Origin: Clostridia bacterium
Lineage (GTDB): Bacteria > Bacillota > Clostridia > TANB77 > CAG-465
Direction of reading: 5' to 3'
DNA length: 32,000 nt
Assembly: GCA_036660635.1 (NCBI GenBank)
Contig: JAVXAF010000002.1
Location: forward strand, 1 to 32,000
Shown: in pieces, positions 115 through 18,915 of the stretch
Layout of the letters: each line of letters opens with the position of its first letter
Numbering within the stretch: the stretch's first letter is position 1
Position numbers and translations under genes: made by a program
Notes under the pieces: generated by a model
What the model saw: only the letters and a program-made list of their open reading frames with translations
Told to the model about the DNA's origin: nothing
The model's database searches: none

Positions 115-336
115 CTACAGTTTATCTTTTACAGCCCTATAATTTATATTATTTATATCTATATCTCGTTTTGGACAATCATATTTTTTAGCATAACAAT
201 ATTCTTTTGGTCTTTCGCCATAAACTTTACATTTACCATTGGCAATATAGTTTGAACATGCTTTACATACAGGTGTTATAACTTCGAAATATGGGTCGTT
301 TTCAATACTCATACTATTACTTATTTCTCTTTTCAT
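115..336 (-). CDS. Small Cys-rich protein (73 aa), possibly zinc-binding; function unknown
   Basis: The ATG overlaps the upstream stop as ATGA (333..336). A GGAGG Shine-Dalgarno (344..348) lies 7 nt upstream. The protein has five Cys, including CKAC. Confidence 0.6.
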   Translation of the reverse strand: MKREISNSMSIENDPYFEVITPVCKACSNYIANGKCKVYGERPKEYCYAKKYDCPKRDIDINNINYRAVKDKL

Positions 337-1079
337 TCTAATACCTCCATTTCAAAATAATATTTACCATCCTTATAATTAGTTTTGGTTACAAAAAAGT
401 TTGTATCTCTTTTCAATAATACTTCATCCTGATATTTATACTTATTTACCGCATAATCTTTAATACTTAATGCCCCGTCAAATGCTTTTGGTACTTTTAT
501 TTGCATTATAATATTTCTACCTTGCTCTTCTGGTTTAATTTTACTCGTTGATATAAAGACACTATCCTTTATTATAGTTTCACTTAAATTCATTATAACT
601 TTATGAGATACATTAATACTATTTTCAAATCCAACAAAGTTTTGTATAATTCCACCTCTATATACAATTATATCTTCCTCCAGTGGATGTGATTTATTTA
701 TGGCGCTATCTAGTATATTAATTTTTTCTTGTATTAAAGGTGTTATATTGTTTGTTCTTATGGCTTTATTAATTTTGGTAGCATTAAATCCTGTATAATC
801 TTTTATAGTATCTTTTTCCTCATCTGTTAATTCTAATTCATCTTCAAATACTGGTAGTGTTGTACTTCTACAAAATGGATGCATTGGTGGGTAATTGTTA
901 CCAGTTCGAGCAGATTCTACTTTAAATACCTTACCATTTAAATTTTTACAAATTTCAGATGTTCTATTATCCAAATAAGCAGAATATCTATAATAAATTA
1001 TACCATCATCTTTATATGATTGCAACTCTGCAAAAATAAGACTTGCAAAAAGAGGAGAAATTTTAAATATTGTTGCCAT
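333..1079 (-). CDS. 5'-truncated phage head-morphogenesis (Mu F / SPP1 gp7-like) domain fused to an ADP-ribosyltransferase domain
   Basis: The N-terminal part carries DNRTSEICKNLNGKVF...PPMHPFCRS, the C-terminal half of the Mu-F motif. The C-terminal part carries the ART triad: VYRG (R), FISTS (STS) and YQDEVLLKRD (Q-x-E ARTT loop). No Shine-Dalgarno precedes ATG 1079, and the N-terminal half of the Mu-F domain is missing. Confidence 0.65.
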   Translation of the reverse strand: MATIFKISPLFASLIFAELQSYKDDGIIYYRYSAYLDNRTSEICKNLNGKVFKVESARTGNNYPPMHPFCRSTTLPVFEDELELTDEEKDTIKDYTGFNATKINKAIRTNNITPLIQEKINILDSAINKSHPLEEDIIVYRGGIIQNFVGFENSINVSHKVIMNLSETIIKDSVFISTSKIKPEEQGRNIIMQIKVPKAFDGALSIKDYAVNKYKYQDEVLLKRDTNFFVTKTNYKDGKYYFEMEVLE

Positions 1080-1244: not shown

Positions 1245-1320
1245 TGGAGCTGAGAGTCGGATTCGAACTGACGACCTGCGGTTTACAAGACCGCTGCTCT
1301 ACCAACTGAGCTATCCCAGC
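1245..1320 (-). tRNA. tRNA-Thr (anticodon UGU)
   Basis: The reverse complement reads GCTGGGATAGCTCAGTTGGTAGAGCAGCGGTCTTGTAAACCGCAGGTCGTCAGTTCGAATCCGACTCTCAGCTCCA. It folds as a cloverleaf with anticodon loop CTTGTAA and an encoded CCA. Confidence 0.93.
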
Positions 1321-1334
1321 ATTTGCAATTCATA

Positions 1335-1409
1335 TGGTGACCCGTGGGAGAGTCGAACTCCCCACTCCGCCGTGAAAGGGCGATGTCTTAACCGATTGAC
1401 CAACGGGCC
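1335..1409 (-). tRNA. tRNA-Glu (anticodon UUC)
   Basis: The reverse complement reads GGCCCGTTGGTCAATCGGTTAAGACATCGCCCTTTCACGGCGGAGTGGGGAGTTCGACTCTCCCACGGGTCACCA. The anticodon loop is CTTTCAC and CCA is encoded. Confidence 0.93.
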
Positions 1410-1412
1410 TAG

Positions 1413-1488
1413 TGGTGAGCTATCCGCGATTCGAACGCGGGACAACTTGATTAAAAGTCAAGTGCTCTGCCAGCTGAGCTAATAGCCC
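1413..1488 (-). tRNA. tRNA-Lys (anticodon UUU)
   Basis: The reverse complement reads GGGCTATTAGCTCAGCTGGCAGAGCACTTGACTTTTAATCAAGTTGTCCCGCGTTCGAATCGCGGATAGCTCACCA. The anticodon loop is CTTTTAA and CCA is encoded. Confidence 0.93.
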
Positions 1489-1645: not shown

Positions 1646-1674
1646 TTGACATTATGTAAATGCAATGCTAAAAT
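1646..1674 (+). promoter_or_regulatory. Near-consensus sigma-A promoter of the T4SS-like operon
   Basis: TTGACA (1646..1651), 17 nt spacer, TAAAAT (1669..1674). GGTGA (Shine-Dalgarno) lies at 1681..1685 and the ATG at 1693. Confidence 0.6.
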
Positions 1675-1692
1675 AATTTTGGTGATCGCAAA

Positions 1693-3534
1693 ATGTTTTT
1701 TATCTTTGAGTTTTTTGTCTATATAATTTATTTTATTCTTAAGCTATATTCCATTGTAGACAAATATTATATATTTTCTAGTTCGGGGAGCAAGCTGAGA
1801 AAATATATAGAAAAAGATCTGCAAAATGTAGCTAGCAATTTGAGCTTACATAATTTTATATTTTTCCCTTTTAGAAAATTTTTATCTAAAATGCGATCAC
1901 AAAAGGTATATAGGCAGTATTTAATTAAACTGCTTATATACTTAGTTATAATTAATATAAAAATTTTGATTTCATATGATTTTTTATTCGCAAATTTTTT
2001 TTCAATACAGTTATTCAAAAAAAATATTGATATTATTTCTTTTTTTGGTAAGTATTCATTATTTTTAAAAGTAATATATTTATTCTTATTTTCATTTTTA
2101 GTCATAAACTTTATAAATAAAGTATATAAAAGCATAACAAAATTTAAAAAATATCCTGAAAGTAATATTATAGAATTAAATCCTGAAAGAAATATATATT
2201 TAGGCAATAATAATGAGGTGGTTTTTAAAAAAGAAGGTCTTTTTCAAAATATTTTAATAACAGGAAGTATTGGCAGTGGAAAAACTAGTTCGGCCATTTC
2301 TAATCTTTTGTATCAGTTACTTAGCTCTAGTATGTGTGGATTAATTATAGATATAAAAGGAACTTATAAAAATATACTAAAACAGATGATTGAAAAATTA
2401 AATTTAGATATTAAAGTAAAAGAAATTTCTTTAGACAATGAGTTTGTGTATAATCCTATTGATAGGAATGATTTAAGTAGTAGTGAAATAGCAAGTAGGT
2501 TAAAAAAAGTTTTGGAACTTGTTTCAAGAAATAATAATTCCGATTCGTACTGGTTAGATAAAGCTAAAGGTTATATATCTGATTTTATAACAATTATCAG
2601 AGTAACAAACAAATATGTGGATTTTTTAAAACTTCATGAGATTATTATAAATGAAAAAATATTAAAAGAAACTTTATTAAGTGTTAAAAATAAAGTATTA
2701 AATAATAAGTTTTCTGATGAAGATCTGTTTAAAATAAATAATGCACTTGGTAATTTGAAAAATGAATTTTTGAATTTAGATGAAAGAACCAAAAATATAA
2801 TTAAATCAGAAATAACAAGAATAACATCACCATTTGTAAGTGACTATAATTTATACAACAAATTTTGTGGAAAATCTGAAAATATAGATTTTTCTACTGA
2901 ATTAGTGATTTTATCAATAGATATAGGTAAAAACGAAGAAATAGCAAAAATTATAGCAACATATATCAAATTAGAATTTCAAAAATTTGTTCTTTCACAA
3001 GAAGGACCTAAAAAAGAAATGTTTTTTGTATGTGATGAATATCAAAGCGTAGCTAATGAAAATGATGCTGATTTTTTTTCTATTTCTAGAGAATTCAAAT
3101 GTATAAATATTATTAGTATGCAAAGCTATAGTTCTCTAAATAATACATTGGTAAATCAAAATGCTGCAAAAACAATAATTCAAAATTTAGTAAATAAAAT
3201 TTGGTTTAGAAATGATGATGTGTATACTGTAAGAGAAATAATAAATCAAATAGGGAAGGAAACCCACAAGGTAAAATCAATTGGCTATAGTGAAAACAGC
3301 TATAATTCTAAATATAATGCACTTAATAAGAATTTTAAAGATATAAAATCTGGACTTACACAAAGTTACAGTATAAATGAAAAAGTTGAATATAAATTTA
3401 ATGAAGAATATCTTACATTACAGTTAAAAGCTTTTGAGGCAGTTATACTATGCAGTGATGGGAAGAGTATGAAATTATTTAGTAAAGTAAAATTAAAGAG
3501 GTGGGATGAAAATGAAAGATCTATTAAAAAATAA
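1693..3534 (+). CDS. Type IV secretion coupling protein-like ATPase (TraD/TrwB/VirD4 superfamily), divergent
   Basis: The N-terminal region is hydrophobic and looks like TM segments. It is followed by Walker A ILITGSIGSGKTS, then IIDIKG, SYWLDKA, Walker B FFVCDEYQ, and the MQSYSSL..IWFRNDD..T motif order typical of T4CPs. The exact start is uncertain. Confidence 0.65.
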   Translation: MFFIFEFFVYIIYFILKLYSIVDKYYIFSSSGSKLRKYIEKDLQNVASNLSLHNFIFFPFRKFLSKMRSQKVYRQYLIKLLIYLVIINIKILISYDFLFANFFSIQLFKKNIDIISFFGKYSLFLKVIYLFLFSFLVINFINKVYKSITKFKKYPESNIIELNPERNIYLGNNNEVVFKKEGLFQNILITGSIGSGKTSSAISNLLYQLLSSSMCGLIIDIKGTYKNILKQMIEKLNLDIKVKEISLDNEFVYNPIDRNDLSSSEIASRLKKVLELVSRNNNSDSYWLDKAKGYISDFITIIRVTNKYVDFLKLHEIIINEKILKETLLSVKNKVLNNKFSDEDLFKINNALGNLKNEFLNLDERTKNIIKSEITRITSPFVSDYNLYNKFCGKSENIDFSTELVILSIDIGKNEEIAKIIATYIKLEFQKFVLSQEGPKKEMFFVCDEYQSVANENDADFFSISREFKCINIISMQSYSSLNNTLVNQNAAKTIIQNLVNKIWFRNDDVYTVREIINQIGKETHKVKSIGYSENSYNSKYNALNKNFKDIKSGLTQSYSINEKVEYKFNEEYLTLQLKAFEAVILCSDGKSMKLFSKVKLKRWDENERSIKK

Positions 3535-3850
3535 AAATAAAATGATTTTGGTATTTGTGATAGCTATTATTATTAGTGTTTTTATGACTAATATTTATGC
3601 TGCGTCTCAAGAACCAATTCTTGTAAATAAAATAAATTTGGCGCTAAAAAAAATACAAGGCTATCTTGTTAAAATATCAGCTCCAGCAGCTGGAGTTGCA
3701 ATAGCTTCGGGGGTTTTAATAAGAAAATTAAGCTTTGGGAGTGAAGAAAAAATGGTTATTGGCAGAAAAATAATAATAAATGCAATTGTAGGGTATGCAA
3801 TAATTATTTCAATTGACATAATAATAAAATTTATAAATACTTTAATATAA
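3506..3850 (+). CDS. Small secreted/membrane protein with VirB2/TrbC pilin-like architecture
   Basis: A signal peptide ends in IYA/AS and two hydrophobic helices follow. The start overlaps the T4CP stop. GAGGTG (3498..3503) serves ATG 3506 or the in-frame ATG 3512. The call rests on architecture only. Confidence 0.4.
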   Translation: MKMKDLLKNKNKMILVFVIAIIISVFMTNIYAASQEPILVNKINLALKKIQGYLVKISAPAAGVAIASGVLIRKLSFGSEEKMVIGRKIIINAIVGYAIIISIDIIIKFINTLI

Positions 3851-3856
3851 GAAAAT

Positions 3857-4699
3857 ATGGATGCAAATAATATACTAGATAATATAAATACAATTGCAGA
3901 AAAACTATATAAATCTATTGAAATTGAAGTATATCCTATTTTGGATAAAATAGTAAATATTGGACCTAAAATTTTAAAAGAAGAGCCTCTTAAAAAAATT
4001 TTTTTTGAAAACAGAATAAATGGAATAACGGTAATAGCTAATTCATTAATATTGCTTTTTTTAATGTATTATATATGCACACAGTTACTAAGTATATATA
4101 ATGGAAATAAGGCAGATAACATTTTAATGTTTATAGTTAAAATAGTAATAATAAGTATTGTTATAAATAATTCTTATTATATTTGCTCTGAAATTTTAAA
4201 TATCTTTGAACTTTTTTCAAATGCCATAGATGAGGTTATTTTCAAGTCTATTGGAAAAGAGGCAACTTTTAATGAACTTAAAGAAATTATAATAAATATT
4301 AAAGATATATTAAATTCGGATTATATTAGCTTAGAGGGTATAATTAAAGGAATTCTTTCTTTTGGAAGCGTTACTGTACTTATAAATTTTGCAATTAGAT
4401 ATGTGACAATAATTTTTTTAATAATTATTTCTCCGATTGGACTTGCTTGTATGGCTAGCGAGTTGACACAGGAGTTTTCAAAGACATGGTTTAAACTATT
4501 TATTTCTAATTTATTAATTCAAATAATTGTAAAAATTATAATTTTTATACCTTTAGCTTTTAGTAAAACTAGCGATATCATATATAAAGTTATATTGGTA
4601 GGAGCTATATATATGATATACAGAATTAACAATTTTGCAAAAGAAATAACAAGTAAATTTGTTTCAACAAAATCAAAAACAAATATTTTCAGAGGGTGA
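3857..4699 (+). CDS. Polytopic membrane protein, VirB6/TrbL-like by architecture and position
   Basis: 280 aa with about 5-6 predicted hydrophobic helices. The gene starts 7 nt after the upstream stop. No catalytic motifs were seen. Confidence 0.35.
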   Translation: MDANNILDNINTIAEKLYKSIEIEVYPILDKIVNIGPKILKEEPLKKIFFENRINGITVIANSLILLFLMYYICTQLLSIYNGNKADNILMFIVKIVIISIVINNSYYICSEILNIFELFSNAIDEVIFKSIGKEATFNELKEIIINIKDILNSDYISLEGIIKGILSFGSVTVLINFAIRYVTIIFLIIISPIGLACMASELTQEFSKTWFKLFISNLLIQIIVKIIIFIPLAFSKTSDIIYKVILVGAIYMIYRINNFAKEITSKFVSTKSKTNIFRG

Positions 4700-4702
4700 T
4701 AT

Positions 4703-5029
4703 ATGATAGATAAAAAAGTAAGAGTATATATGAACTATAAAAGAAAAAATAAATGGCTTGGGATAATAGAGTATAAATCTTTGAGTGCTTTTTTAATATA
4801 TTCATTTATAGTTGGAGCTATTATTAATTTACTTCCAATTTGCTTTGAATGGTCAGTATATATTTTCCTGTTTTTAGTATTTCCTCTTTTAGGACTTTTG
4901 CTAGTTAATGTTAATGGAAATGATATACTAGATATGATTAATGATATATTTTCTTTCAATAAAATAAAAGGAATTTACGTTAAAAATGTACAAAGTGTAA
5001 AAAAATTTAAAAAAATAGTATATAAATAA
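4703..5029 (+). CDS. Small two-TM protein, VirB3 / TcpE / PrgI-like
   Basis: 108 aa with a basic N-terminus (KRKNKWLGIIEYKSL), then two adjacent hydrophobic helices. An AGAGGGTGA Shine-Dalgarno overlaps the upstream stop. In Gram-positive T4SS loci this is the position normally followed by VirB4. Confidence 0.4.
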   Translation: MIDKKVRVYMNYKRKNKWLGIIEYKSLSAFLIYSFIVGAIINLLPICFEWSVYIFLFLVFPLLGLLLVNVNGNDILDMINDIFSFNKIKGIYVKNVQSVKKFKKIVYK

Positions 5030-5072: not shown

Positions 5073-5101
5073 TTGTAAATTATAAAAAACAATGATATAA
5101 T
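5073..5101 (+). promoter_or_regulatory. Sigma-A promoter of the dnaD-like/dnaI-like pair
   Basis: TTGTAA-17 nt-TATAAT. A GTGGGAG Shine-Dalgarno lies 9 nt before ATG 5136. Confidence 0.5.
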
Positions 5102-5135: not shown

Positions 5136-6086
5136 ATGAAAATACAAAGAAAAGATAAAATGGAACTTTGCGATACTGAAGTATCAGATTTGTTTATATT
5201 AAATTATATGAGTACTTTAGAAGAAAATGATGTTAAAGTATATATGTATATGCTTTTTTTATCTCAAAAAAATATTGAAATGGAAAAGTCTACAATTGCT
5301 AAAAAAGCAGGAATATCTGAGCAAGAGTTAGAAATTGCTTTTGATAGACTCCAATTAGAATCTCTTATTACAAAAACAACTCAAGGATATATAATAACTG
5401 ATCTAAAAGAAGTAGAAATAAACAAAACATATATTCCAAAAATTGAACCTAAGAAAACAAAAAATCAAACAGACCAAGAAAGGAAAAGAATAGCTGCCGC
5501 AACCGCAATAAATGAAAGTTTCTTTCAAGGAATAATGTCACTAGGCTGGTATACTGATATAAGTACAATGTTTGAAAATTATATGTTTTCTGAAGAAGTA
5601 ATGATTGCACTATTTCATTATTGCCAAGAAAGAAAAGCGTTAAATAAAAAATATGTTCATGCGGTTGCAGAAACATGGTATAAAGGTGAAGTTAAAACCT
5701 TCGAACAATTAGAGGAATTTTTAGAAAACTATGATAAAATAATTAAAATAAAACAAAAAATATGTAAAGCTTTGAGAATAAACAGAAACTTTACAAAATA
5801 TGAAGAACAATATATTGATGTATGGATAAAAGACTTTGGATATGATTTTGAAATGATAGAGGAAGCTTTAAAAAGAACCGTGTCTAAGTCAAATCCAAGT
5901 ATAAATTATGTTAATGGCATTTTATCTAATTGGAATAAAAAAGGATTTAAATCGCCAAAAGATTTAGAAAAAGAAGTAAAACCTACTAAAAGTATAACTG
6001 ATAGTGGGGCAAAGACTAAGGTAAAATATCAAAACTATGAGCAAAGAAATTATGAAGATTTAGAATCATTTTATGATAATATGTAG
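5136..6086 (+). CDS. DnaD/DnaB(Firmicutes)-type replication initiation / helicase-loading protein
   Basis: The C-terminal DnaB_2/DnaD signature is ...SNPSINYVNGILSNWNKKGFKSPKDL. An earlier related repeat reads KKYVHAVAETWYKGEVKTFEQL. The N-terminus is winged-helix-like. Confidence 0.75.
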   Translation: MKIQRKDKMELCDTEVSDLFILNYMSTLEENDVKVYMYMLFLSQKNIEMEKSTIAKKAGISEQELEIAFDRLQLESLITKTTQGYIITDLKEVEINKTYIPKIEPKKTKNQTDQERKRIAAATAINESFFQGIMSLGWYTDISTMFENYMFSEEVMIALFHYCQERKALNKKYVHAVAETWYKGEVKTFEQLEEFLENYDKIIKIKQKICKALRINRNFTKYEEQYIDVWIKDFGYDFEMIEEALKRTVSKSNPSINYVNGILSNWNKKGFKSPKDLEKEVKPTKSITDSGAKTKVKYQNYEQRNYEDLESFYDNM

Positions 6087-6106
6087 TATTAGAAGGGGTG
6101 AGTAAT

Positions 6107-7120
6107 TTGGATAATGATTTATACAGAAAATTAAAAAGGCAATATGATATTAAAAAACAAATAGCAGTTGATAAAGCAAATGTTAAAAAGAAAAAAATAT
6201 ATGAAGAAAATCCAAAATTACAAGAAATAGAAGACCAAATTAATGGACTTGCATTAGATATCACTAAAAAGATATTAAATTCAGATAAGATAACAAGGCA
6301 AATAGAACAAGAAAATATGAGTATGAAACTTTCTAAATTGAGTGATAAACTAGATAGTGAATTTAAAAAAATTAATATAAAAAAAGAAAGCTTAAAACCA
6401 ATATTTGAATGTGAAACTTGTCAAGATACTGGATTTGTAACAAAAGATGGTCAAACAAAGCAATGTAATTGCTTCTTACAAGCACTTATAAATGAAACGT
6501 ATAAACAATCCAATGTAACAAAATTAGAGGAAGAAAATTTTTCTACATTTGATATTGGATTTTATGCAAAAACTCCAAATAAACAAAAGTATGGAATTGA
6601 AAAATCCCCTTTAGAAAACATAGAACAAATAAAAAATATATCATATGAATTTTCTAAAAATATATACAAAAAAGATCAAAAAAATTTACTTTTTATCGGT
6701 AATACAGGCTTAGGTAAAACATTTTTGGCCAACTGTATAGCTGCCGAGGTTATAAATAGTGGAAAAACTGTTATTTATCAAACAGCACCGGTTTTAATGG
6801 ATAAAATTATTACGTATAAATTTTCATATGATAAAAAAGATATAGAAAAAGATCAATATAACAAAATATTTGATGTTGACTTACTTATAATTGATGATCT
6901 TGGAACAGAGACGATGACTAATAATAAGTTTACAGAACTATTTAATATAATTAATACAAGGTTATTACGAAATAAGAAAATAATAATATCTACTAATTTA
7001 ACTTTAAATGAATTATATAAGCAATATGATGAAAGAGTTATATCAAGGCTTATTGGAAACTTTACAATATGTAAATTTGTAGGAGACGATATCAGGCTAA
7101 AGAAAAAAAGAATTAATTAA
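6107..7120 (+). CDS. DnaI/DnaC-type helicase loader AAA+ ATPase
   Basis: Walker A is GNTGLGKTFLANCIA and Walker B is LLIIDDLGTE. A Cys cluster CETCQDTG..CNC lies upstream of the AAA+ domain. The ORF opens at GTG 6098, but the AGAAGGGG Shine-Dalgarno (6091..6098) fits the in-frame TTG at 6107 better. Confidence 0.85.
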   Translation: MDNDLYRKLKRQYDIKKQIAVDKANVKKKKIYEENPKLQEIEDQINGLALDITKKILNSDKITRQIEQENMSMKLSKLSDKLDSEFKKINIKKESLKPIFECETCQDTGFVTKDGQTKQCNCFLQALINETYKQSNVTKLEEENFSTFDIGFYAKTPNKQKYGIEKSPLENIEQIKNISYEFSKNIYKKDQKNLLFIGNTGLGKTFLANCIAAEVINSGKTVIYQTAPVLMDKIITYKFSYDKKDIEKDQYNKIFDVDLLIIDDLGTETMTNNKFTELFNIINTRLLRNKKIIISTNLTLNELYKQYDERVISRLIGNFTICKFVGDDIRLKKKRIN

Positions 7121-11100: not shown

Positions 11101-11120
11101 TGTAAAAATAAATGTTTTTA

Positions 11121-11149
11121 TTGACAACACAATCTTGGAGTGATATAAG
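11121..11149 (+). promoter_or_regulatory. Sigma-A promoter (extended -10) of the clpX-like gene
   Basis: TTGACA-17 nt-TATAAG with TGn immediately upstream of the -10. It lies downstream of the ORF-track start at 11112, which supports ATG 11202 as the real start. Confidence 0.55.
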
Positions 11150-11201
11150 TAAGGTATCTAAAAAATCAAATCTTTTGATTAATATTAAAGGAGGCATTAA
11201 A

Positions 11202-12458
11202 ATGAAGAAAGTAACGTATCATAAGGTGGCTGGAACTGATTTGGAAAAACAAGTTTCAAATGAAAGCTTTTTTATTTGCTCATGCTGTAATAAACAAATT
11301 CAAGGAATAAGTAATTCTTTGGTTTGCGGATCAGCAATTTTTTGTGAAAAGTGCTATGTGAAAATTGTTGACAATATGCTTGATAACATATTTGGAGAAC
11401 AAGTAGCTGAAATTAAATATGTACAAAATGCAGAGAAAGTAAAAAAAATAAACGTAAAAGTTGCAAAAAAAGATCTTACACCTAATGAAGTTTTACAAAG
11501 TGTTTTAAAAGATATAAAAGGTCAAGACAATAATATTGAAACTTTAATATCGGTGTTAAATAAAAATTTTAACACTGAGGATTGTGAATTTAAAAGCAAT
11601 ATTATTATTGTTGGTAAGACAGGGACTGGCAAAACAGCAACACTTAAAAACATCTTCAAACTTTTAGATGTGCCATATATAATAGCAAATTCAGCTTCTT
11701 TTTCTAAAGCTGGTTTTGTAGGAAAACCTGTAGCAACAATTATACATGATTTAATTAATAAAAATAATGGTAATATTGAAAAAGCACAAAAAGGTGTAAT
11801 TATTTTAGATGAGTTTGATAAATTATCTTCTAATTCAACAAACGGTAAGGAAGATATTAAAGAAGGAGCACAACAAGAACTTTTAAAACTAGTTGAAGGA
11901 ACTAAAATAACAATTCAAGACCAAAATGGATCGCTTAAAGAATTTGATACTAGTAAAATTACTTTTATTGGACTTGGAGCTTTTCCATATTTGTATGATC
12001 AAAGAGAACAGAAAACTAAATCTAAAAAAATGGGATTTTTTGATTTACAAACAGAATTTTCTAATAACGAAAAGCAAAAATTTGTGCTTGAAGATTTTTT
12101 AAAAGCTGGATTGATGTCAGAACTTATTGGAAGGTTTTCAATGGTTATAGAATGGAATTCACTTGATGTAAAAGCAATAAAAGAAATAATTGTTAATTCT
12201 GAATCATCTCAATTTACTAAGATGCAGAAATATCTTAAATCTAAAAATATTGATCTTGTGATAAAAAAAGGCACAATAGATAAGATGGCTGCAGAAGCAG
12301 AGTCTTTTGGTACCGGTGGAAGAGCAGTAAAGAAAATAGTTGACGAGATATTTTCTGAAATTCTAAAAAAGCTAACTTTTTTAGAAAACAAAGATATAAG
12401 CAAATGTATTATATCTGAAGAAACAATAATAGACCCTAAAAATTTTAAATTTAAGTGA
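11202..12458 (+). CDS. ClpX-like AAA+ unfoldase, divergent paralogue
   Basis: An AAAGGAGG Shine-Dalgarno precedes ATG 11202. The N-terminal C4 zinc ribbon is CSCC...CEKC. Walker A is GKTGTGKT and LLDVPYIIANSASFSKAGFVG aligns to ClpX LLDVPF..ADAT.LTEAGYVGED. Walker B is ILDEFDK. MGFF sits at the IGF-loop position and ELIGRF is present. Confidence 0.7.
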   Translation: MKKVTYHKVAGTDLEKQVSNESFFICSCCNKQIQGISNSLVCGSAIFCEKCYVKIVDNMLDNIFGEQVAEIKYVQNAEKVKKINVKVAKKDLTPNEVLQSVLKDIKGQDNNIETLISVLNKNFNTEDCEFKSNIIIVGKTGTGKTATLKNIFKLLDVPYIIANSASFSKAGFVGKPVATIIHDLINKNNGNIEKAQKGVIILDEFDKLSSNSTNGKEDIKEGAQQELLKLVEGTKITIQDQNGSLKEFDTSKITFIGLGAFPYLYDQREQKTKSKKMGFFDLQTEFSNNEKQKFVLEDFLKAGLMSELIGRFSMVIEWNSLDVKAIKEIIVNSESSQFTKMQKYLKSKNIDLVIKKGTIDKMAAEAESFGTGGRAVKKIVDEIFSEILKKLTFLENKDISKCIISEETIIDPKNFKFK

Positions 12459-12635: not shown

Positions 12636-13334
12636 ATGGAATTTAAAGCAAATCCAGAAAAAAAAATAGAGATAGAAGTAAATGGAGAGGTCTTTTTAAG
12701 AAATGCGATCGAAACACATTATGTTCAGATAGGTGAAGATTATATTAAGATAATAGAAAAATATGTAAAAGATATATATGAATCAGGTGATATAGTTTCA
12801 ATAAGTGAAAAAATAATAGGGCTTTGCCAAAAAAGAGTTGTATACAAAAAAGATATGAAAGTTACCTCACTTGCAAAATTTTTATCTAAGTTTGCAATGA
12901 GGAGTGATGCAGGTGTTGGTGTTGATAATCCGTATAAAATGCAATTTGCAATTGATCTTTGTGGAAGATTAAAAGTTATTTGGGCAGCTATTGCAGGAGG
13001 GATATGTAAAATTTTCCATAGAAAAGGAGTTTTTTATGAAATCGTAGGACCAGAAATAAGTGGATTAGATGGATTTTATGGAAATGTATTTGAAGACTAT
13101 GCAAAATTTGGGATAAGAATACCAGAAAATTCTACTGGTGTGTGTAATGAAATTTATGATAAACTTGGAATAAGATGTATGATAGTTGATGCAAATGATT
13201 TTAATGTTGAAATATTAGGAAAAGCAGATGTAATATCTGAGTACGATGAAGATACTTTAAAAAAGATGATAAAAGACAATCCTGCTGGTCAAGCCAAAAC
13301 GCTTACTCCACTTGTTTTGATAAGAAAAAAATAG
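12636..13334 (+). CDS. CofE-like (F420-0:gamma-glutamyl ligase superfamily) protein; physiological role unknown
   Basis: The call rests on size (232 aa) and recalled family pattern: GDIVSISEKIIGLCQKR, a Gly-rich centre, and IVDANDF. It needs HMM confirmation. Confidence 0.35.
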   Translation: MEFKANPEKKIEIEVNGEVFLRNAIETHYVQIGEDYIKIIEKYVKDIYESGDIVSISEKIIGLCQKRVVYKKDMKVTSLAKFLSKFAMRSDAGVGVDNPYKMQFAIDLCGRLKVIWAAIAGGICKIFHRKGVFYEIVGPEISGLDGFYGNVFEDYAKFGIRIPENSTGVCNEIYDKLGIRCMIVDANDFNVEILGKADVISEYDEDTLKKMIKDNPAGQAKTLTPLVLIRKK

Positions 13335-13362
13335 CTGTGTAATTTTAATTTTGGAGGCATTT

Positions 13363-15066
13363 ATGAAAAAAGAAAAATTCGAAGAAGATAAATTATCAAA
13401 TGATAATTTAAAAATGCCTTTAGAAGATAACTTAGAGGCTGATATAAAAAATAATAATATTAGTGATGAAGTAGAGATATCTACTTTTGAAAAAAATGTA
13501 TTAAATAGAGGCTCAAAAAAAATAGCTTTTATAATATTAGTTTGTGTATTAGATTTAGTAATACTTTTTGGTATTATTTTTTCGATAAATAAATTGAATG
13601 AAAATGTATATAAAAATGTTTTTTTACTAGGAAAGGATATAAGTGGCAAAAATTTTAACCAAGTAGTAGAAATATTAAAAAGTGATAAAGAAAAAAGCGG
13701 CCAAAATTTATTACTTATTGTTTGTGAAGGAAATAATGAAATATATAGAATAAATAGTAACGATATAGATTTTAATATTGATATACAGCAAACTGCAAAA
13801 AAAGTATTTGATTTTGGAAGAGATAGTAATTTGTTTAAAAATAATTTTTGTATAATTAAAACATTAATTACTAAAAAAAATATTGAGCCTATTTTTAAAT
13901 TTAATGAAGAAGAGTTAGATCTTATAATTAAAAATATTGATTTGACATTGGAAAATAGGAAAGTTGATGCTTCATATAGTATAGACCCGATAAATCATAA
14001 GCTAATCATAAAAAATGGTGTAAAAGGTAATACTATTGATTATCAAGAAGTGAAAAATCAAATATTAAACTCATTTAAAAATTTTAAACAAGAAAAAATA
14101 AATTTAAATGTTATTATCGCACCACCAAATAAATTAAATGAAGAGGATGTTTATAAAAAAGTAAGGTGCGATCCAATAGATGCTTACATTGACGAGAGTG
14201 TATCACCATATAAATTTATATCAGAAGTAGTTGGATATGATTTTGATCAAGAAGAACTAAAAAAAGTACTAGAAAAAAATACTAATGAAGGTGAGAATAT
14301 AGAATTCACGTTAAATGTTATAGAACCTAAAGTAAAACTTTCTGATATAACATACAAGTTATATAATGATAAATTAGCTGGGTATACTACGTATTTTGAC
14401 CCAAGCCAGTCGGCAAGGGCCAAAAACTTAAGTATTGCACTACAATATTTAAATGGAAAAGTTATTATGCCTGGTGAGACATTTTCATATAATAAAACGG
14501 TAGGAGATATTACTAGTTCGAAAGGATATTTACCTGCTGCAACATTTAAAGGTGGTACAGTTGTAAATGAAGTCGGTGGTGGAATATGCCAAACCAGTTC
14601 GACGTTATACAATGTATCCTTAATGGCAAATATGGAAATAGTAGAAAGGCATCAACATGGATTGCCTGTGGGATATGTGCCTCCAAGTAGAGATGCAACG
14701 GTATATTTTCCGGTTTTAGATTTCAAATTTAAAAATACAAGAAAATATCCTGTTAAAATAGTTACTTCTTTTAGCTTTGGAGGAACAGTAAATATTTCTA
14801 TATTTGGAACAAAAGAACAAACTGAGTATAATATTGTTTTATCAAATAAATACATTAGTACAATAAATTATCCAACAAAATATATTTATGATGAAACTTT
14901 ACCAGAAGGAGAACAGCAAGTGATTTCGAATGGAGTTAATGGATATGTATCAGAGTCATATTTAACTAAATACTTAAACGGGAAATATATTACTTCATAT
15001 ATGTTATCAAAAGACACATATAATCCACAAATAGCACTAGTAAAGCTAGGAACATTAAAAAAGTAA
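13363..15066 (+). CDS. VanW-domain / G5-domain membrane-anchored protein (possible L,D-transpeptidase class)
   Basis: GGAGG (13353..13357) precedes ATG 13363. There is an N-terminal TM segment. The VanW core reads PGETFSYNKTVG...GGGICQTSSTLYN...ERHQH. A C-terminal G5-like segment reads LPEGEQQVISNGVNGY. Confidence 0.8.
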   Translation: MKKEKFEEDKLSNDNLKMPLEDNLEADIKNNNISDEVEISTFEKNVLNRGSKKIAFIILVCVLDLVILFGIIFSINKLNENVYKNVFLLGKDISGKNFNQVVEILKSDKEKSGQNLLLIVCEGNNEIYRINSNDIDFNIDIQQTAKKVFDFGRDSNLFKNNFCIIKTLITKKNIEPIFKFNEEELDLIIKNIDLTLENRKVDASYSIDPINHKLIIKNGVKGNTIDYQEVKNQILNSFKNFKQEKINLNVIIAPPNKLNEEDVYKKVRCDPIDAYIDESVSPYKFISEVVGYDFDQEELKKVLEKNTNEGENIEFTLNVIEPKVKLSDITYKLYNDKLAGYTTYFDPSQSARAKNLSIALQYLNGKVIMPGETFSYNKTVGDITSSKGYLPAATFKGGTVVNEVGGGICQTSSTLYNVSLMANMEIVERHQHGLPVGYVPPSRDATVYFPVLDFKFKNTRKYPVKIVTSFSFGGTVNISIFGTKEQTEYNIVLSNKYISTINYPTKYIYDETLPEGEQQVISNGVNGYVSESYLTKYLNGKYITSYMLSKDTYNPQIALVKLGTLKK

Positions 15067-15165: not shown

Positions 15166-15693
15166 ATGGAACCTTTAATACAAATGAATAAATTTGAGGT
15201 TGTCGATATGCCTGGAATGAATACAATTGCATTTTTAGTAGAAAAAGATGAAGAGGCTTATCAAAAAGGAAATTCACTTTTATCACTACAAAAAATAGAT
15301 TGTATAGATACTCAAGAAGAAGGAAAAATAAAAAAAACTTTTAATGTTATAAAAACAGAAGAAGATGAAAATCAATTAATAGTACTTCTTACACTCACAA
15401 ATTCAAAAGCTATTTTGAATACAGGTGAACTTACAAGTGAAGGATTCAAGGCTACAGAAAAAAATGTACCATTAAATTATGGTTCTATTTATAATCAAGA
15501 TGGCGTTGAATATAAAGAAGTAGAGTATACACCAAGTATGAAAAGACATTTTTCAATAATAGATACTCAAACTGGTGATGAGGTTAGACCAATGTTGTAT
15601 ACTGATCAAGTAACAGGTAAGATTAAAGGAAAATGCAAATTATTACCGCAAAAGCCATATATTGTATTAGAATTAAAATACGAAGAAAAATAA
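15166..15693 (+). CDS. Hypothetical cytoplasmic protein (175 aa)
   Basis: An AGAGG Shine-Dalgarno lies 9 nt upstream. The ORF is acidic and non-hydrophobic, with no recognisable motif. Confidence 0.5.
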   Translation: MEPLIQMNKFEVVDMPGMNTIAFLVEKDEEAYQKGNSLLSLQKIDCIDTQEEGKIKKTFNVIKTEEDENQLIVLLTLTNSKAILNTGELTSEGFKATEKNVPLNYGSIYNQDGVEYKEVEYTPSMKRHFSIIDTQTGDEVRPMLYTDQVTGKIKGKCKLLPQKPYIVLELKYEEK

Positions 15694-15949: not shown

Positions 15950-17923
15950 ATGAAAAATAAATTAAACAAATTAAAAAGGGAAGCTATACCGTTCATAATA
16001 GTCTATATTCTATTTATTTTAATAGTTATAGGCTCTTTTGTCGTAACGGCCAAAAGTGTGGCGGAAGGAGCAAACTCATTTGATAAAATAAGTAGTATAA
16101 TGAGTGGATTTGTACCAAATATAACAAACTTTAAATTTTTGAGTGCGATATTTGTGGATTTTACAAGCTTTATTAACGCATCATTTTGGTCTTTACTTAT
16201 CTTTATTGGTATGTTTATAGCATGGAAAATTAAATTTGCACAAAAGAATACTTATGATGGAATAGAACATGGATCAAGTGATTGGAGTAAGAACGGCGAA
16301 GAATTTGACAAAACTTCTGATGGGAAAGAGATTTTAAATAAAAAGGGTGGATTTATACTTAGTAAAAATCATTATTTGGGAACTGGTTTAAGAAGCGTAT
16401 TAATTAATAAGAATGTTCTTGTTGTTGGTGGATCTGGTTCCGGTAAAACAGCTTGTTACGTTAAACCTAATATACTACAATGTTTAGGCTCATATGTAAT
16501 AACAGATCCCAAAGGAGAACTATATAGAGATATGTCTGGATTTTTGAAGGCTAATGGATATGAAGTTAAAGCTTTTAATTTAGTTAATCCGGAATATAGT
16601 GACAGATACAACCCTTTAATGCATATAGTAGATCATAAAAGTGTTGATATACTTGCAGAAACAATTGTACAAGGAGCTAAAAAAGGTACAAGTGGCAGCA
16701 ATGATCCATTTTGGGATGATACTGCAAAAATGTTGCTTAAAGCTTGTATTTATTATGTAATATCTGTACTTCCAGAAGAAGAACAAAATATTTCTAGCTG
16801 CCTTAATATAATAAGAGCAGGTGGTGCTGATGATAGTGTATTTAAAAAATTATTTTTAGATGAGCTAAAGCCTGAACATCCTGGTAGAAAAGAGTATGAA
16901 AACTTTAGTACTTCAGCTGATAAAACCATGCAAAGCATAGTCATTTCAACTATTGCAAAGATTAGTACTTTTGATACACCAGCAATGCAAAAAATAACAA
17001 CATCAAATAATATTAATTTTGATGATCTTGGAAAAAAGAAACTTGCAATTTTTGTAATAACATCAACGTCTGATAGTACATATGATTTTATATCAACAAT
17101 GTTTTTTAGTCAAATGTTGCAAAAGTTATTTTTACAAGCAGATAATTGTGGTGGAACTTTAAAAAATCAAGTATATTTTTTGTTAGATGAATTTCCAAAT
17201 ATTGGCCAAATACCAGATTTTTCTAAAAAATTAAGTGTAACAAGAAGTATGGGAATTAGTATTTCAATTATTGTGCAAGCATTAGATCAATTAGAGTCTT
17301 TATATAAAGAACAGTATGAAATTATAATAGGTAACTGTGATACACAAATATTTTTAGGGAGTCAATCAATAAAAACATGTGAATATTTTTCAAAGAGTTT
17401 AGGGCAAAAAACAATCACATATAAAAGTAGATCTGTAAGTAAAGATAAAGATGAATGGAACAAACAAGGAGTATCTATTAGTGAACAAAAGCAAGGCAGA
17501 GAATTAATGACAATTGATGAACTAAAAAGGCTAGATCCTAATGAGGAGATTTTGGTAGTACGAACATTAAAGCCAATAAAGGCTAAAAAGTATTGGTATT
17601 ATAAGTTACATCCAAGACGTACTGAGTCAATAAAGTATGAAATTCATGATATAAGTGAAATGCCAAAGACTGAAGATGTAGAAGTTAAAATTATGAACGT
17701 AGAACAACATTTAAATAAAAGAACACAACTTGCCAAAGAAAGAATGAAAGAACAAAGACAAAATGAAGTTGTAAATGAAATAGAAATAATAGATGTAGAA
17801 AACAAATCTGAACAAAAGCAAGACATTAATAAACCTAAAGAAAAAGAAGGAACTATTGATTTACAAAAAGAACTAGAAAAAAAGTTTGATGAACTTTTTG
17901 GAAGTAGTAATAATAATGATTAA
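15950..17923 (+). CDS. VirD4/TraG-type type IV secretion coupling protein
   Basis: Two N-terminal TM helices are followed by EHGSSDWS (the GSARWA-like motif). Walker A is VVGGSGSGKT, then ITDPKGE, DPFWDD, Walker B YFLLDEFPNIG, and IVQALDQL. The C-terminal tail is charged. Confidence 0.88.
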   Translation: MKNKLNKLKREAIPFIIVYILFILIVIGSFVVTAKSVAEGANSFDKISSIMSGFVPNITNFKFLSAIFVDFTSFINASFWSLLIFIGMFIAWKIKFAQKNTYDGIEHGSSDWSKNGEEFDKTSDGKEILNKKGGFILSKNHYLGTGLRSVLINKNVLVVGGSGSGKTACYVKPNILQCLGSYVITDPKGELYRDMSGFLKANGYEVKAFNLVNPEYSDRYNPLMHIVDHKSVDILAETIVQGAKKGTSGSNDPFWDDTAKMLLKACIYYVISVLPEEEQNISSCLNIIRAGGADDSVFKKLFLDELKPEHPGRKEYENFSTSADKTMQSIVISTIAKISTFDTPAMQKITTSNNINFDDLGKKKLAIFVITSTSDSTYDFISTMFFSQMLQKLFLQADNCGGTLKNQVYFLLDEFPNIGQIPDFSKKLSVTRSMGISISIIVQALDQLESLYKEQYEIIIGNCDTQIFLGSQSIKTCEYFSKSLGQKTITYKSRSVSKDKDEWNKQGVSISEQKQGRELMTIDELKRLDPNEEILVVRTLKPIKAKKYWYYKLHPRRTESIKYEIHDISEMPKTEDVEVKIMNVEQHLNKRTQLAKERMKEQRQNEVVNEIEIIDVENKSEQKQDINKPKEKEGTIDLQKELEKKFDELFGSSNNND

Positions 17924-18222: not shown

Positions 18223-18915
18223 ATGAAAAAAACAAATAGGGTGATTAGCTTTTTTGTAATTGTAATATCTATGGCGCTTATATATACATTAAGTGTTGTG
18301 CTACTTGACAATTCTTCAAAGATAAATCAGGGTAAATATAGAGTTAATGACATTGTACTTTTATCAACTGTAAATGTAGAAGAAAAAAATGAAAAGCAAG
18401 AACAAACTAATATTTCTGACTTAGTGCTTAATTTATCACAGTCAAACAAAATTTCTATGCTAATGTCAAAAGATGAAAAATATAATAAAATGTATATTGA
18501 TAACATTTCTGTTTCAAACCCAAAACTATTAGGTGAAATTTATTATACTCAAGAAGGCTTAGAAGATACTTTTACTAAAATAACAAAAGAAACAAAAGCT
18601 ATAGAAATATATCCTGTAGAAAAAGATGAACAATATTTTGTTGAAATGAAATTTGAAAATGCAAATTTTTTAAAGGATGCTAAAATACCAGAAGATATTA
18701 ATAAGATTGTATATGATGGGACTATTTTAAAGAACTTAAATGTTGATGAGGGTAATTTAAAATTTAACATTAAATTTAATTTTAATATTGTTGATATAAC
18801 AGGAAAGAAAAGTGTGTGCAAATTTAATTTAACTGTACCAAATGATGAAATTAGTAAAAATGGAATAAATATTACAAGACTAGATGTTTCTGATTATGGA
18901 TTTAAACTAAAATAA
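18223..18915 (+). CDS. Hypothetical membrane-anchored / exported protein (230 aa)
   Basis: A TAGGAGG Shine-Dalgarno is present. An N-terminal signal-anchor helix (VISFFVIVISMALIYTLSVVLL) is followed by a hydrophilic domain with no recognised motif. Confidence 0.55.
   Translation: MKKTNRVISFFVIVISMALIYTLSVVLLDNSSKINQGKYRVNDIVLLSTVNVEEKNEKQEQTNISDLVLNLSQSNKISMLMSKDEKYNKMYIDNISVSNPKLLGEIYYTQEGLEDTFTKITKETKAIEIYPVEKDEQYFVEMKFENANFLKDAKIPEDINKIVYDGTILKNLNVDEGNLKFNIKFNFNIVDITGKKSVCKFNLTVPNDEISKNGINITRLDVSDYGFKLK

Follow-up and report, generated by a model that had tools for sequence, protein, structure and literature searches.

The first 32,000 nucleotides of contig JAVXAF010000002.1 (GenBank assembly GCA_036660635.1) from a member of the Clostridia lineage TANB77, referred to below as the window, have a G+C content of approximately 26% and include a block of four genes related to those of type IV secretion systems (T4SSs). 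The genes, named here ORF1 to ORF4, specify a divergent type IV coupling protein (T4CP) and proteins resembling VirB2, VirB6, and PrgI/VirB3 (Table 1). An earlier note, made from the sequence of the window, described four tightly packed, intact genes, and this description holds: all four lie on the forward strand, ORF1 and ORF2 overlap by 29 nucleotides, 6 nucleotides separate ORF2 from ORF3 and 3 nucleotides ORF3 from ORF4, and dnaD follows 106 nucleotides after ORF4. The note also drew attention to the lack of VirB4, a relaxase, and a hydrolase by the block, and no match to VirB4, a relaxase, or a T4SS hydrolase was found among the open reading frames (ORFs) of at least 90 residues in the 32-kb window. 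VirB4 is regarded as the only ubiquitous protein of T4SSs (PMC3548315, PMC4027160). As judged from the comparison of related genomes, the block is a conserved and selected chromosomal operon of hundreds of species of uncultured gut Clostridia, and it probably does some job for the cell. Its product is probably a membrane translocon or a pilus with a T4CP as the motor, and DNA is a possible substrate.

Table 1 Features of the window and of compared loci. Positions with an L prefix are those of compared loci; all others are positions in the window.
Feature	Position	Strand	Remarks
Phage_Mu_F head-morphogenesis domain fused to ADP-ribosyltransferase toxin domain, plus small CxxC protein	115-1079	-	Upstream of the block
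tRNA Thr-Glu-Lys cluster	1245-1488	-	Upstream of the block
Block promoter, extended -10 sigma-70-type, TTGACA-17-TGcTAAAAT	1646-1674	+	11/12 matches, upstream TG; position conserved
Shine-Dalgarno-like GGTGATC of ORF1	1680-1686	+	5' end of predicted short-leader mRNA; GGTGAT/GGTGGT at the same place in relatives
ORF1, divergent T4CP ATPase, 613 residues	1693-3534	+	Pfam, fold, hhalign
ORF2, VirB2/T4SS_pilin-like, 114 residues	3506-3850	+	PF18895, signal peptide, hhalign
ORF3, VirB6/TrbL-like polytopic membrane protein, 280 residues	3857-4699	+	TrbL matches of orthologs, fold, hhalign
ORF4, PrgI/VirB3-like protein with two transmembrane segments, 108 residues	4703-5029	+	Weak PrgI matches of orthologs, operon position
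dnaD-dnaC promoter, TTGTAA-17-TGnTATAAT	5073-5101	+	In the 106-nucleotide gap after ORF4; no terminator predicted
DnaD/DnaB_2-type protein	5136-6086	+	Directly downstream of the block
DnaC/DnaI-like helicase loader	6098-7120	+	After DnaD
ClpX-like AAA+ paralog	11112-12458	+	Cys-rich N-terminus; 206 bits vs ClpX cut-off 359
u232	12636-13334	+	Faint F420-ligase or folate gamma-glutamate-ligase-like match
PG_binding_4-VanW-G5 wall protein	13351-15066	+	Membrane-anchored
u175	15166-15693		Flanks T4CP2
T4CP2, canonical T4CP, CD1115 family	15950-17923	+	T4SS-DNA_transf 257.6 bits; NF045973 441 bits
u230	18223-18915		Flanks T4CP2
tRNA-Pro	28476-28551	+	
ORF of 311 residues	28952-29887	-	
VirB2-like plasmid genes	L090:10631-10966, L091:6220-6543, L093:6257-6634, L094:6183-6476		Align to ORF2 family, hhalign 52%
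ORF3-ORF4 fusions, 401-402 residues	L038:11889-13094, L041:3070-4278		One ORF in each of two species

Relatives of the block were sought in one genome per GTDB species, which gave 249 stretches with a relative of ORF1. Counts of loci refer to the best 80 of these 249 stretches, with each gene counted where the contig reaches far enough, and the presence of ORF2, ORF3, and ORF4 was scored by family hidden Markov models. The 80 loci all belong to uncultured Clostridia, from the guts of humans, rabbits, chickens, and ruminants, and many are located on contigs of 100–500 kb, the largest contig having 771 kb. ORF2 is present in 80 of 80, ORF3 in 79 of 79, and ORF4 in 77 of 77 loci, and the order of the genes is constant down to 34% identity of ORF1. 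Synteny and purifying selection, which the earlier note had named as a check, are both found: the same order is seen in the 80 loci, and the median pairwise ratio of nonsynonymous to synonymous substitution rates (dN/dS) ranges from 0.12 for ORF1 through 0.18 for ORF3 and 0.20 for ORF2 to 0.23 for ORF4. The median values of the neighbouring DnaD and DnaC are 0.15 and 0.16. Fragmented ORFs of the block are rarer than fragmented copies of DnaC, which is presumably essential. Therefore, the split ORFs are attributed to assembly errors in metagenome-assembled genomes (MAGs), and pseudogenization is ruled out as their cause. The upstream neighbours of the block vary among the relatives and are housekeeping genes (IreB, RuvX, MutS, MutL, Tex, IleRS). 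No relatives of the block were found in 2.9 million viral contigs and 50,697 phages, ORF2 and ORF3 have no match at E ≤ 0.1 in a set of 72,556 plasmids, and neither an integrase, nor a relaxase, nor a wall hydrolase was found in the locus.

The promoter that the earlier note had recognized in front of ORF1 (TTGACA-17-TAAAAT) is the best promoter match of the region. There are 52 promoter-like sites in the region, which is close to the 50.6 expected from shuffled sequence. A match to the consensus is thus not significant alone, and the site is considered real because it is conserved in both position and sequence. In 23 of 25 relatives, the best-scoring site has the form TTGAC(T/A)-17-TGnTA(A/G)AAT and is positioned 16–22 nucleotides before the start of ORF1; the GGTGAT-type Shine-Dalgarno sequence after it is also retained, while the flanks diverge. 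By this comparison, the block promoter is a conserved element. Public annotations shorten ORF1 to 438 (NCBI) or 547 residues (another assembly), with starts placed 175 or 66 codons further downstream. Conservation among the homologs of ORF1 nevertheless extends from residue 1 through the N-terminal 170 residues. Since the promoter and the Shine-Dalgarno sequence are conserved ahead of the homologous start, the true start of ORF1 is fixed at position 1693. A 613-residue ORF1 with three predicted transmembrane segments (hydrophobic residues 4–22, 76–94, and 114–132) is supported by the conserved N-terminus, promoter, and Shine-Dalgarno sequence.

ORF1 scores above the curated Pfam thresholds of two T4CP domains, with 44.7 bits against TrwB_AAD_bind (cut-off 20.5) and 33.3 bits against TraG-D_C (cut-off 22), and both domains are also precomputed for its homologs. 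The Walker A motif GSIGSGKT is formed by residues 191–198 and the Walker B motif MFFVCDE by residues 443–449; G191-T198, D448, and E449 are invariant across 20 homologs. A search with the AlphaFold2 model of ORF1 (mean predicted local distance difference test score, pLDDT, of 77.6) by Foldseek returned the coupling proteins Cagbeta (E = 7e-13) and TrwB (1e-11) ahead of HerA (8e-9) and VirB4 (7e-8). In the model, residues 263–391 form an all-helical insertion, which would correspond to the all-α, substrate-binding region of T4CPs. The C-terminus of the model is rich in β-structure and lacks the three C-terminal helices that set VirB4 apart (PMC3548315). Profile comparisons by hhalign employed small alignments of Firmicutes plasmid proteins, as comparisons with single sequences of pCDC3875 proteins were uninformative. 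ORF1 aligns to the plasmid T4CPs with a probability of 95.5% over 348 columns (E = 1.6e-8), in contrast to 16% over 95 columns, around the P-loop only, for the VirB4s of the same plasmids. The possibility that ORF1 is a diverged VirB4 is ruled out by the ranking of the Foldseek matches and by the hhalign results. The sequence and model comparisons thus firmly identify ORF1 as a T4CP, and the membrane-anchored P-loop ATPase of coupling-protein type proposed by the earlier note is borne out by three methods. The protein is very divergent, with 282 matches at E ≤ 1e-30 among 1.84 billion cluster representatives; its matches in the plasmid set are at most 29% identical and limited to the ATPase domain, and a search of the PDB sequences with the ORF1 profile gave nothing significant.

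The three remaining proteins of the block are predicted to reside in the membrane. ORF2 has a signal peptide with a conserved A-x-A-type site, with cleavage expected between IYA and AS, followed by two hydrophobic helices. The loop between the helices has the conserved form KxSFGxEEK, with K or R in the first position, FSFGDEEK is near-invariant across the orthologs, and ORF2 is among the better conserved components of the block. The match of the window protein to PF18895 (T4SS_pilin) is marginal (26.7 bits vs the cut-off of 26.6), while among the 29 orthologs compared, PF18895 is matched by 28 and TrbC/VirB2 (PF04956; E ≤ 0.05) by 13. The ORF2 family also aligns, over both helices, to the small protein encoded after the T4CP in Firmicutes conjugative operons (hhalign 52%, E = 1.5e-4). 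The sequence evidence for ORF2 as a VirB2/T4SS_pilin protein is good, and the VirB2-like protein with a signal peptide and two transmembrane helices of the earlier note can be retained.

ORF3 contains five hydrophobic segments, and its residues R181 and P193 are invariant. The window protein scores 17.6 bits against TrbL, below the cut-off of 25.9; among the orthologs, 11 of 28 match TrbL (best E = 7.8e-7) and one matches TrbL_4 (2.7e-8). When the AlphaFold2 model of ORF3 (pLDDT 75.7) was compared with 350,542 PDB chains, the top five were all TrwI/VirB6, with weak scores (E = 0.06–0.15, TM-score of ~0.35). The hhalign comparison with the plasmid VirB6-like proteins covers 209 collinear columns (E = 0.002), in which R181 and P193 align to R162 and P174, invariant in the plasmid family, with an identical 12-residue spacing. 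Profiles and predicted fold provide moderate support for ORF3 as VirB6, which was the polytopic protein of about 280 residues in the earlier note. The assignment of ORF4 as PrgI/VirB3, anticipated in the same place as a VirB3-type protein with two transmembrane segments, is weak but consistent. ORF4 has two hydrophobic segments and the invariant residues G20, Y24, and P61. The window protein has no match in Pfam, and weak matches of the orthologs are to PrgI (8 of 26, best E = 0.019) and VirB3 (2 of 26); apart from these two, only DUF2207_C (2 of 26) was matched more than once. The hhalign comparison with plasmid PrgI gave E = 0.011 and a probability of 3.8%. ORF4 occupies the operon slot of PrgI, after the VirB6-like gene, and its size and topology fit PrgI/VirB3. 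In two species, ORF3 and ORF4 are naturally fused into one ORF, whereas a close relative of these species (L039) has them separate. The fusion suggests, by the Rosetta-stone argument, that ORF3 and ORF4 act together.

The earlier note expected a VirB4 gene after the fourth gene of the block, and this is its place in the CD1115-type conjugative operons of Firmicutes. One operon order is shared by four Firmicutes plasmids, from Clostridium botulinum, C. perfringens, Paenibacillus, and Cohnella: a T4CP, a protein of ~100–125 residues, a VirB6-like protein of ~265 residues, PrgI, sometimes an extra gene, VirB4 of the CD1110 family, and a hydrolase. The order of the block is that of the first four genes of the plasmid operons, with dnaD where VirB4 would come; virB4 follows ORF4 in 0 of 77 loci, and no VirB4 or relaxase was found within ±10 kb of the block in the 80 relatives. 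The profile matches between block and plasmid proteins are modest singly, but they are collinear. We infer an origin in the 5' part of a CD1115-type conjugative operon of Firmicutes, captured long ago. With its signal peptide, pair of hydrophobic helices, and charged loop, the ~110-residue 'hypothetical' product of the gene between the T4CP and VirB6 of CD1115-type operons is VirB2-like in architecture. According to a nomenclature review from 2025, Gram-positive T4SSs, apart from those of Patescibacteria, are without VirB2 (PMC12857230).

In 64 of 68 loci, the block is followed by dnaD and dnaC in the same orientation, at a median distance of 95 nucleotides. Insertions of 0.6–6.4 kb separate ORF4 from dnaD in seven loci, and in one locus (L065) the dnaD-dnaC pair is inverted and upstream of the block. 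The link between dnaC and gyrA is looser than that between the block and dnaD, and its orientation changes between subclades. The separate dnaD promoter claimed by the earlier note was located, and 47 of 59 relatives reach 10 or more of the 12 consensus positions. Most relatives share the TTGTAA and TATAAT hexamers and the TG unchanged, which makes this promoter more conserved than the block promoter. Across the relatives L006 to L082, the site is conserved nearly base for base, though the proteins are only ~50% identical. The sequence conservation suggests that the dnaD promoter is also a regulatory site. Terminator-like hairpins occur in 5 of 59 junctions between ORF4 and dnaD. The block and dnaD thus each have a promoter, and transcription may continue from the block into dnaD. 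In C. difficile, the gene pair CD3653-CD3654, the counterpart of dnaD-dnaC, is regarded as the core module of helicase loading (PMC5204125).

A second T4CP (T4CP2), unmentioned in the earlier note, is encoded ~12 kb downstream of the block. It is 26% identical to ORF1 over 135 residues, and it matches 2,121 plasmids, mostly conjugative plasmids of Firmicutes, with up to 38% identity. Its homologs in the relatives are 60–80% identical, their contigs have the same lengths as those with the ORF1 matches, and they are found in the retained order dnaD-dnaC-dnaJ(-)-gyrA-u232-VanW-u175-T4CP2-u230-dnaX-ybaB-recR. Judged by this order, T4CP2 is not a stray gene of an integrative and conjugative element (ICE) but is chromosomally fixed, and the relatives keep two domesticated T4CP-type ATPases ~12 kb apart. 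T4CP2 is flanked by conserved genes, namely u175, a small ORF, and u230, with signal recognition particle (SRP) RNA-dnaX-ybaB-recR just downstream. The u230 protein has an N-terminal transmembrane anchor and an ectodomain of ~200 residues; no protein family was recognized for u175, u230, or the small ORFs, and a VirB8-like role for u230 would be speculative. In an abundant relative (L086/L087), T4CP2 is split into a 163-residue transmembrane part and a 502-residue ATPase part.

We estimate a probability of about 70% that the block was derived from a T4SS in the distant past, became domesticated, and has since been inherited vertically on the chromosome upstream of dnaD-dnaC. The earlier note had offered a domesticated module as one of two explanations, and it is supported by co-occurrence and synteny in 80 species, purifying selection, conserved promoters, and the lack of viral, phage, or close plasmid relatives. 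Three outcomes that had been named beforehand as speaking against the prediction, namely an ORF1 that is not a T4CP, an adjacent VirB4 or relaxase, and pseudogenized relatives, were not observed. In the proposed mechanism, transcription from the extended -10 promoter would produce an mRNA with a short leader, from which the four genes would be translated in a coupled manner. ORF2 would be exported by Sec, cleaved after the A-x-A site, and held in the membrane as a pool of two-helix pilins, while ORF3 bound to ORF4 would provide a membrane platform or channel. A membrane-anchored hexamer of ORF1 would use ATP hydrolysis to push a substrate through the platform, to extract the pilin, or both, and the extraction could give rise to a short VirB2-type filament spanning the wall. 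The substrate would most likely be DNA or nucleoprotein, by analogy with the function of T4CPs and with the Ced/Ted, ComB, and Patescibacteria systems. ORF1 would either replace VirB4 or cooperate with a VirB4 encoded elsewhere.

Several points weigh against a domesticated T4SS derivative of this kind. VirB3 is a binding partner of VirB4 in the known T4SSs, in which the formation of pili requires VirB4 and not the T4CP. Because VirB3 partners VirB4 and pili depend on VirB4, a machine with only a T4CP is, to our knowledge, without experimental precedent. The absence of VirB4 was established only in the window and within ±10 kb of the block and T4CP2 in the relatives. Every genome compared is a MAG. 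The assignments of VirB6 and PrgI rest on sub-threshold or low-probability matches, the substrate and the direction of transport are suggested by analogy only, and the link to dnaD-dnaC is left unexplained by a translocon. It is possible, although the odds are somewhat against it, that the block encodes a VirB4-independent T4SS derivative, a core and vertically inherited organelle in which a deep-branching T4CP is the sole motor and takes over the roles of VirB4 in partnering VirB3 and energizing the pilin or channel. Such an organelle would serve to exchange DNA or other macromolecules.

An unlikely explanation, which nevertheless has to be weighed seriously, is that the block is part of a complete but dispersed chromosomal T4SS, as in Rickettsia and many Patescibacteria, with VirB4, a VirB8-like protein, and the wall hydrolase encoded elsewhere and T4CP2 perhaps serving as the substrate receptor; the block would then act within a usual machine with two ATPases. 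The fixation of T4CP2 12 kb from the block implies that T4SS genes are already dispersed in these genomes, a PrgI/VirB3-like protein normally partners VirB4 (PMC12857230), and the T4CP genes of Patescibacteria are often far from virB4 (PMC12102498). By contrast, no VirB4 was found in the ~45 kb spanning both T4CPs of the relatives examined, and the slot that virB4 occupies in every related plasmid operon is taken by dnaD in nearly all loci. A division of labour in which T4CP2 is the substrate receptor and ORF1 energizes the membrane module is speculation.

It is improbable that the block forms only a surface filament or adhesin, directed at host mucus or other cells, with the T4CP-like ATPase repurposed for pilin extraction and no transport of macromolecules. 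The strong conservation of the pilin and its nearly invariant loop would fit such a role, and conjugative pili are mainly organelles of attachment (PMC12857230); however, T4CPs have no known role as motors of pilus assembly, and ORF1 has retained the all-α substrate-binding region. Quite improbable is a function in chromosome biology, in which the T4SS ancestry would be incidental and the block would have been recruited together with DnaD and DnaC as a membrane DNA pump or tether (in replication initiation, restart, or segregation, similar to FtsK/SpoIIIE) or for the processing of incoming DNA. The close and frequent link to dnaD-dnaC, the rarity of terminators between them, the looser link of dnaC to gyrA, and the membership of T4CPs in the FtsK/HerA superfamily (PMC3548315) favour this role, whereas dnaD has its own strongly conserved promoter, the pair is separated from the block by the insertions in seven loci and relocated in L065, and a secreted pilin-like protein fits poorly with a purely cytoplasmic role in DNA metabolism. 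The other explanation of the earlier note, a freshly truncated ICE or conjugative plasmid in the course of decay, to which the tRNA Thr-Glu-Lys cluster, the phage Mu-F/ADP-ribosyltransferase gene just upstream, and the resemblance of the block to the 5' part of a conjugative operon might point, can be dismissed, since the same chromosomal site is occupied in 80 species with differing upstream contexts, the four genes are kept under purifying selection (dN/dS 0.12–0.23) with conserved promoters, and there are no viral, phage, or close plasmid relatives.

The domesticated derivative that we favour resembles several known systems in part. The CD1115/CTn2-type (MPF_FATA-like) operons, for example those of C. 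botulinum pCDC3875 and C. perfringens pSXP-169_2, begin with four genes in the order of the block and have a remote, profile-level similarity to each component. However, they go on with VirB4 of the CD1110 family and with a peptidoglycan hydrolase, and they adjoin a relaxase with MobC or DUF3801, whereas dnaD comes after ORF4 in the block. The block also differs from them in being chromosomal, universal in its lineage, and highly diverged, with ORF2 and ORF3 lacking a plasmid match at the level of BLAST. The T4SS of Patescibacteria (the candidate phyla radiation, CPR) is likewise chromosomal and relaxase-less in monoderm cells and is widespread in an uncultured lineage with reduced genomes (PMC12102498, PMC12857230); it includes VirB2-like pilins (PF18895), VirB6, and PrgI/VirB3 and, as is the case for the block, has replication genes as neighbours. 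By contrast, it is defined by VirB4, together with TrsD and VirB8, and its T4CP is usually encoded at a distance and is non-essential in one strain, whereas in the block the T4CP leads the operon, no VirB4 is nearby, and one pilin gene is present instead of an array.

The archaeal Ced/Ted systems are domesticated, minimal T4SS derivatives and consist, like the block, of approximately four proteins: a single ATPase, a channel resembling VirB6, a pilin resembling VirB2, and CedA2, a small protein with two transmembrane segments (PMC9905601). TedC is processed by signal peptidase I (PMC9905601). Together with the system of Patescibacteria, Ced/Ted provides a precedent for domesticated T4SS derivatives that lack a relaxase and have VirB2-like pilins. 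The Ced/Ted systems differ from the block in that they are archaeal and ultraviolet-induced, have a VirB4/HerA-like ATPase, and import DNA, as shown by experiment; there is no detectable sequence relationship. The DNA-uptake system ComB of Helicobacter pylori is a host-exapted T4SS derivative with a single ATPase and without a relaxase (PMC12857230, PMC3548315), but it represents the reciprocal case, because it keeps VirB4 and has no VirD4, and it belongs to a diderm with VirB7–10. The Ced/Ted, Patescibacteria, and ComB systems all keep VirB4. The orphan T4CPs of integrative mobilizable elements and TraB of Streptomyces are ATPases of the FtsK/T4CP superfamily without a cognate VirB4 (PMC3548315, PMC9585547). 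Unlike the block, they belong to mobile elements that hijack another T4SS or move double-stranded DNA through hyphae, have no partners resembling VirB2, VirB6, or PrgI, and are not among the fixed core genes.

A literature search found no paper describing the block. A paper on a 'conserved pilin' of TANB77 was rejected as prior art; it describes a Tad (type IVc) pilus cluster, which is a different system. VirB4 defines and classifies T4SSs, so VirB4-based tools such as CONJScan would not report the block; public records name the homologs of ORF3 'hypothetical' or 'membrane protein' and often shorten ORF1. If the VirB4-independent interpretation is true, the block breaks the rule of VirB4 as the one universal T4SS component, and these Clostridia would join Patescibacteria as a second lineage of monoderms in which a pilin system of the VirB2 type is chromosomal. 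The block would represent a further independent domestication of conjugation machinery beside Ced/Ted, ComB, and the Patescibacteria system. If the system is VirB4-independent, an ATPase of the coupling-protein type can be the sole motor, which bears on the division of roles between the ATPase families. The hosts are abundant, uncultured, low-GC Clostridia of the gut and rumen, for which the exchange of DNA or nutrients with neighbouring cells could be central.

The block is preceded in the window by the tRNA cluster and the Phage_Mu_F/ADP-ribosyltransferase stretch. The latter was seen only in the species of the window itself (L088) and is probably the edge of a prophage. Downstream, dnaD and dnaC are followed by a dnaJ-like gene on the reverse strand, gyrA, RNase P RNA, the ClpX-like paralog, u232, and the VanW/G5 protein, and further on by T4CP2, SRP RNA, and dnaX-ybaB-recR. 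The ClpX-like paralog between RNase P RNA and u232 is present only in some relatives (L036, L088), while u232 and the wall protein form a conserved pair after gyrA. Towards the far end of the window, the ORF of 311 residues, which has no Pfam or NCBIfam match, adjoins tRNA-Pro, and the GC skew drops to approximately zero there.

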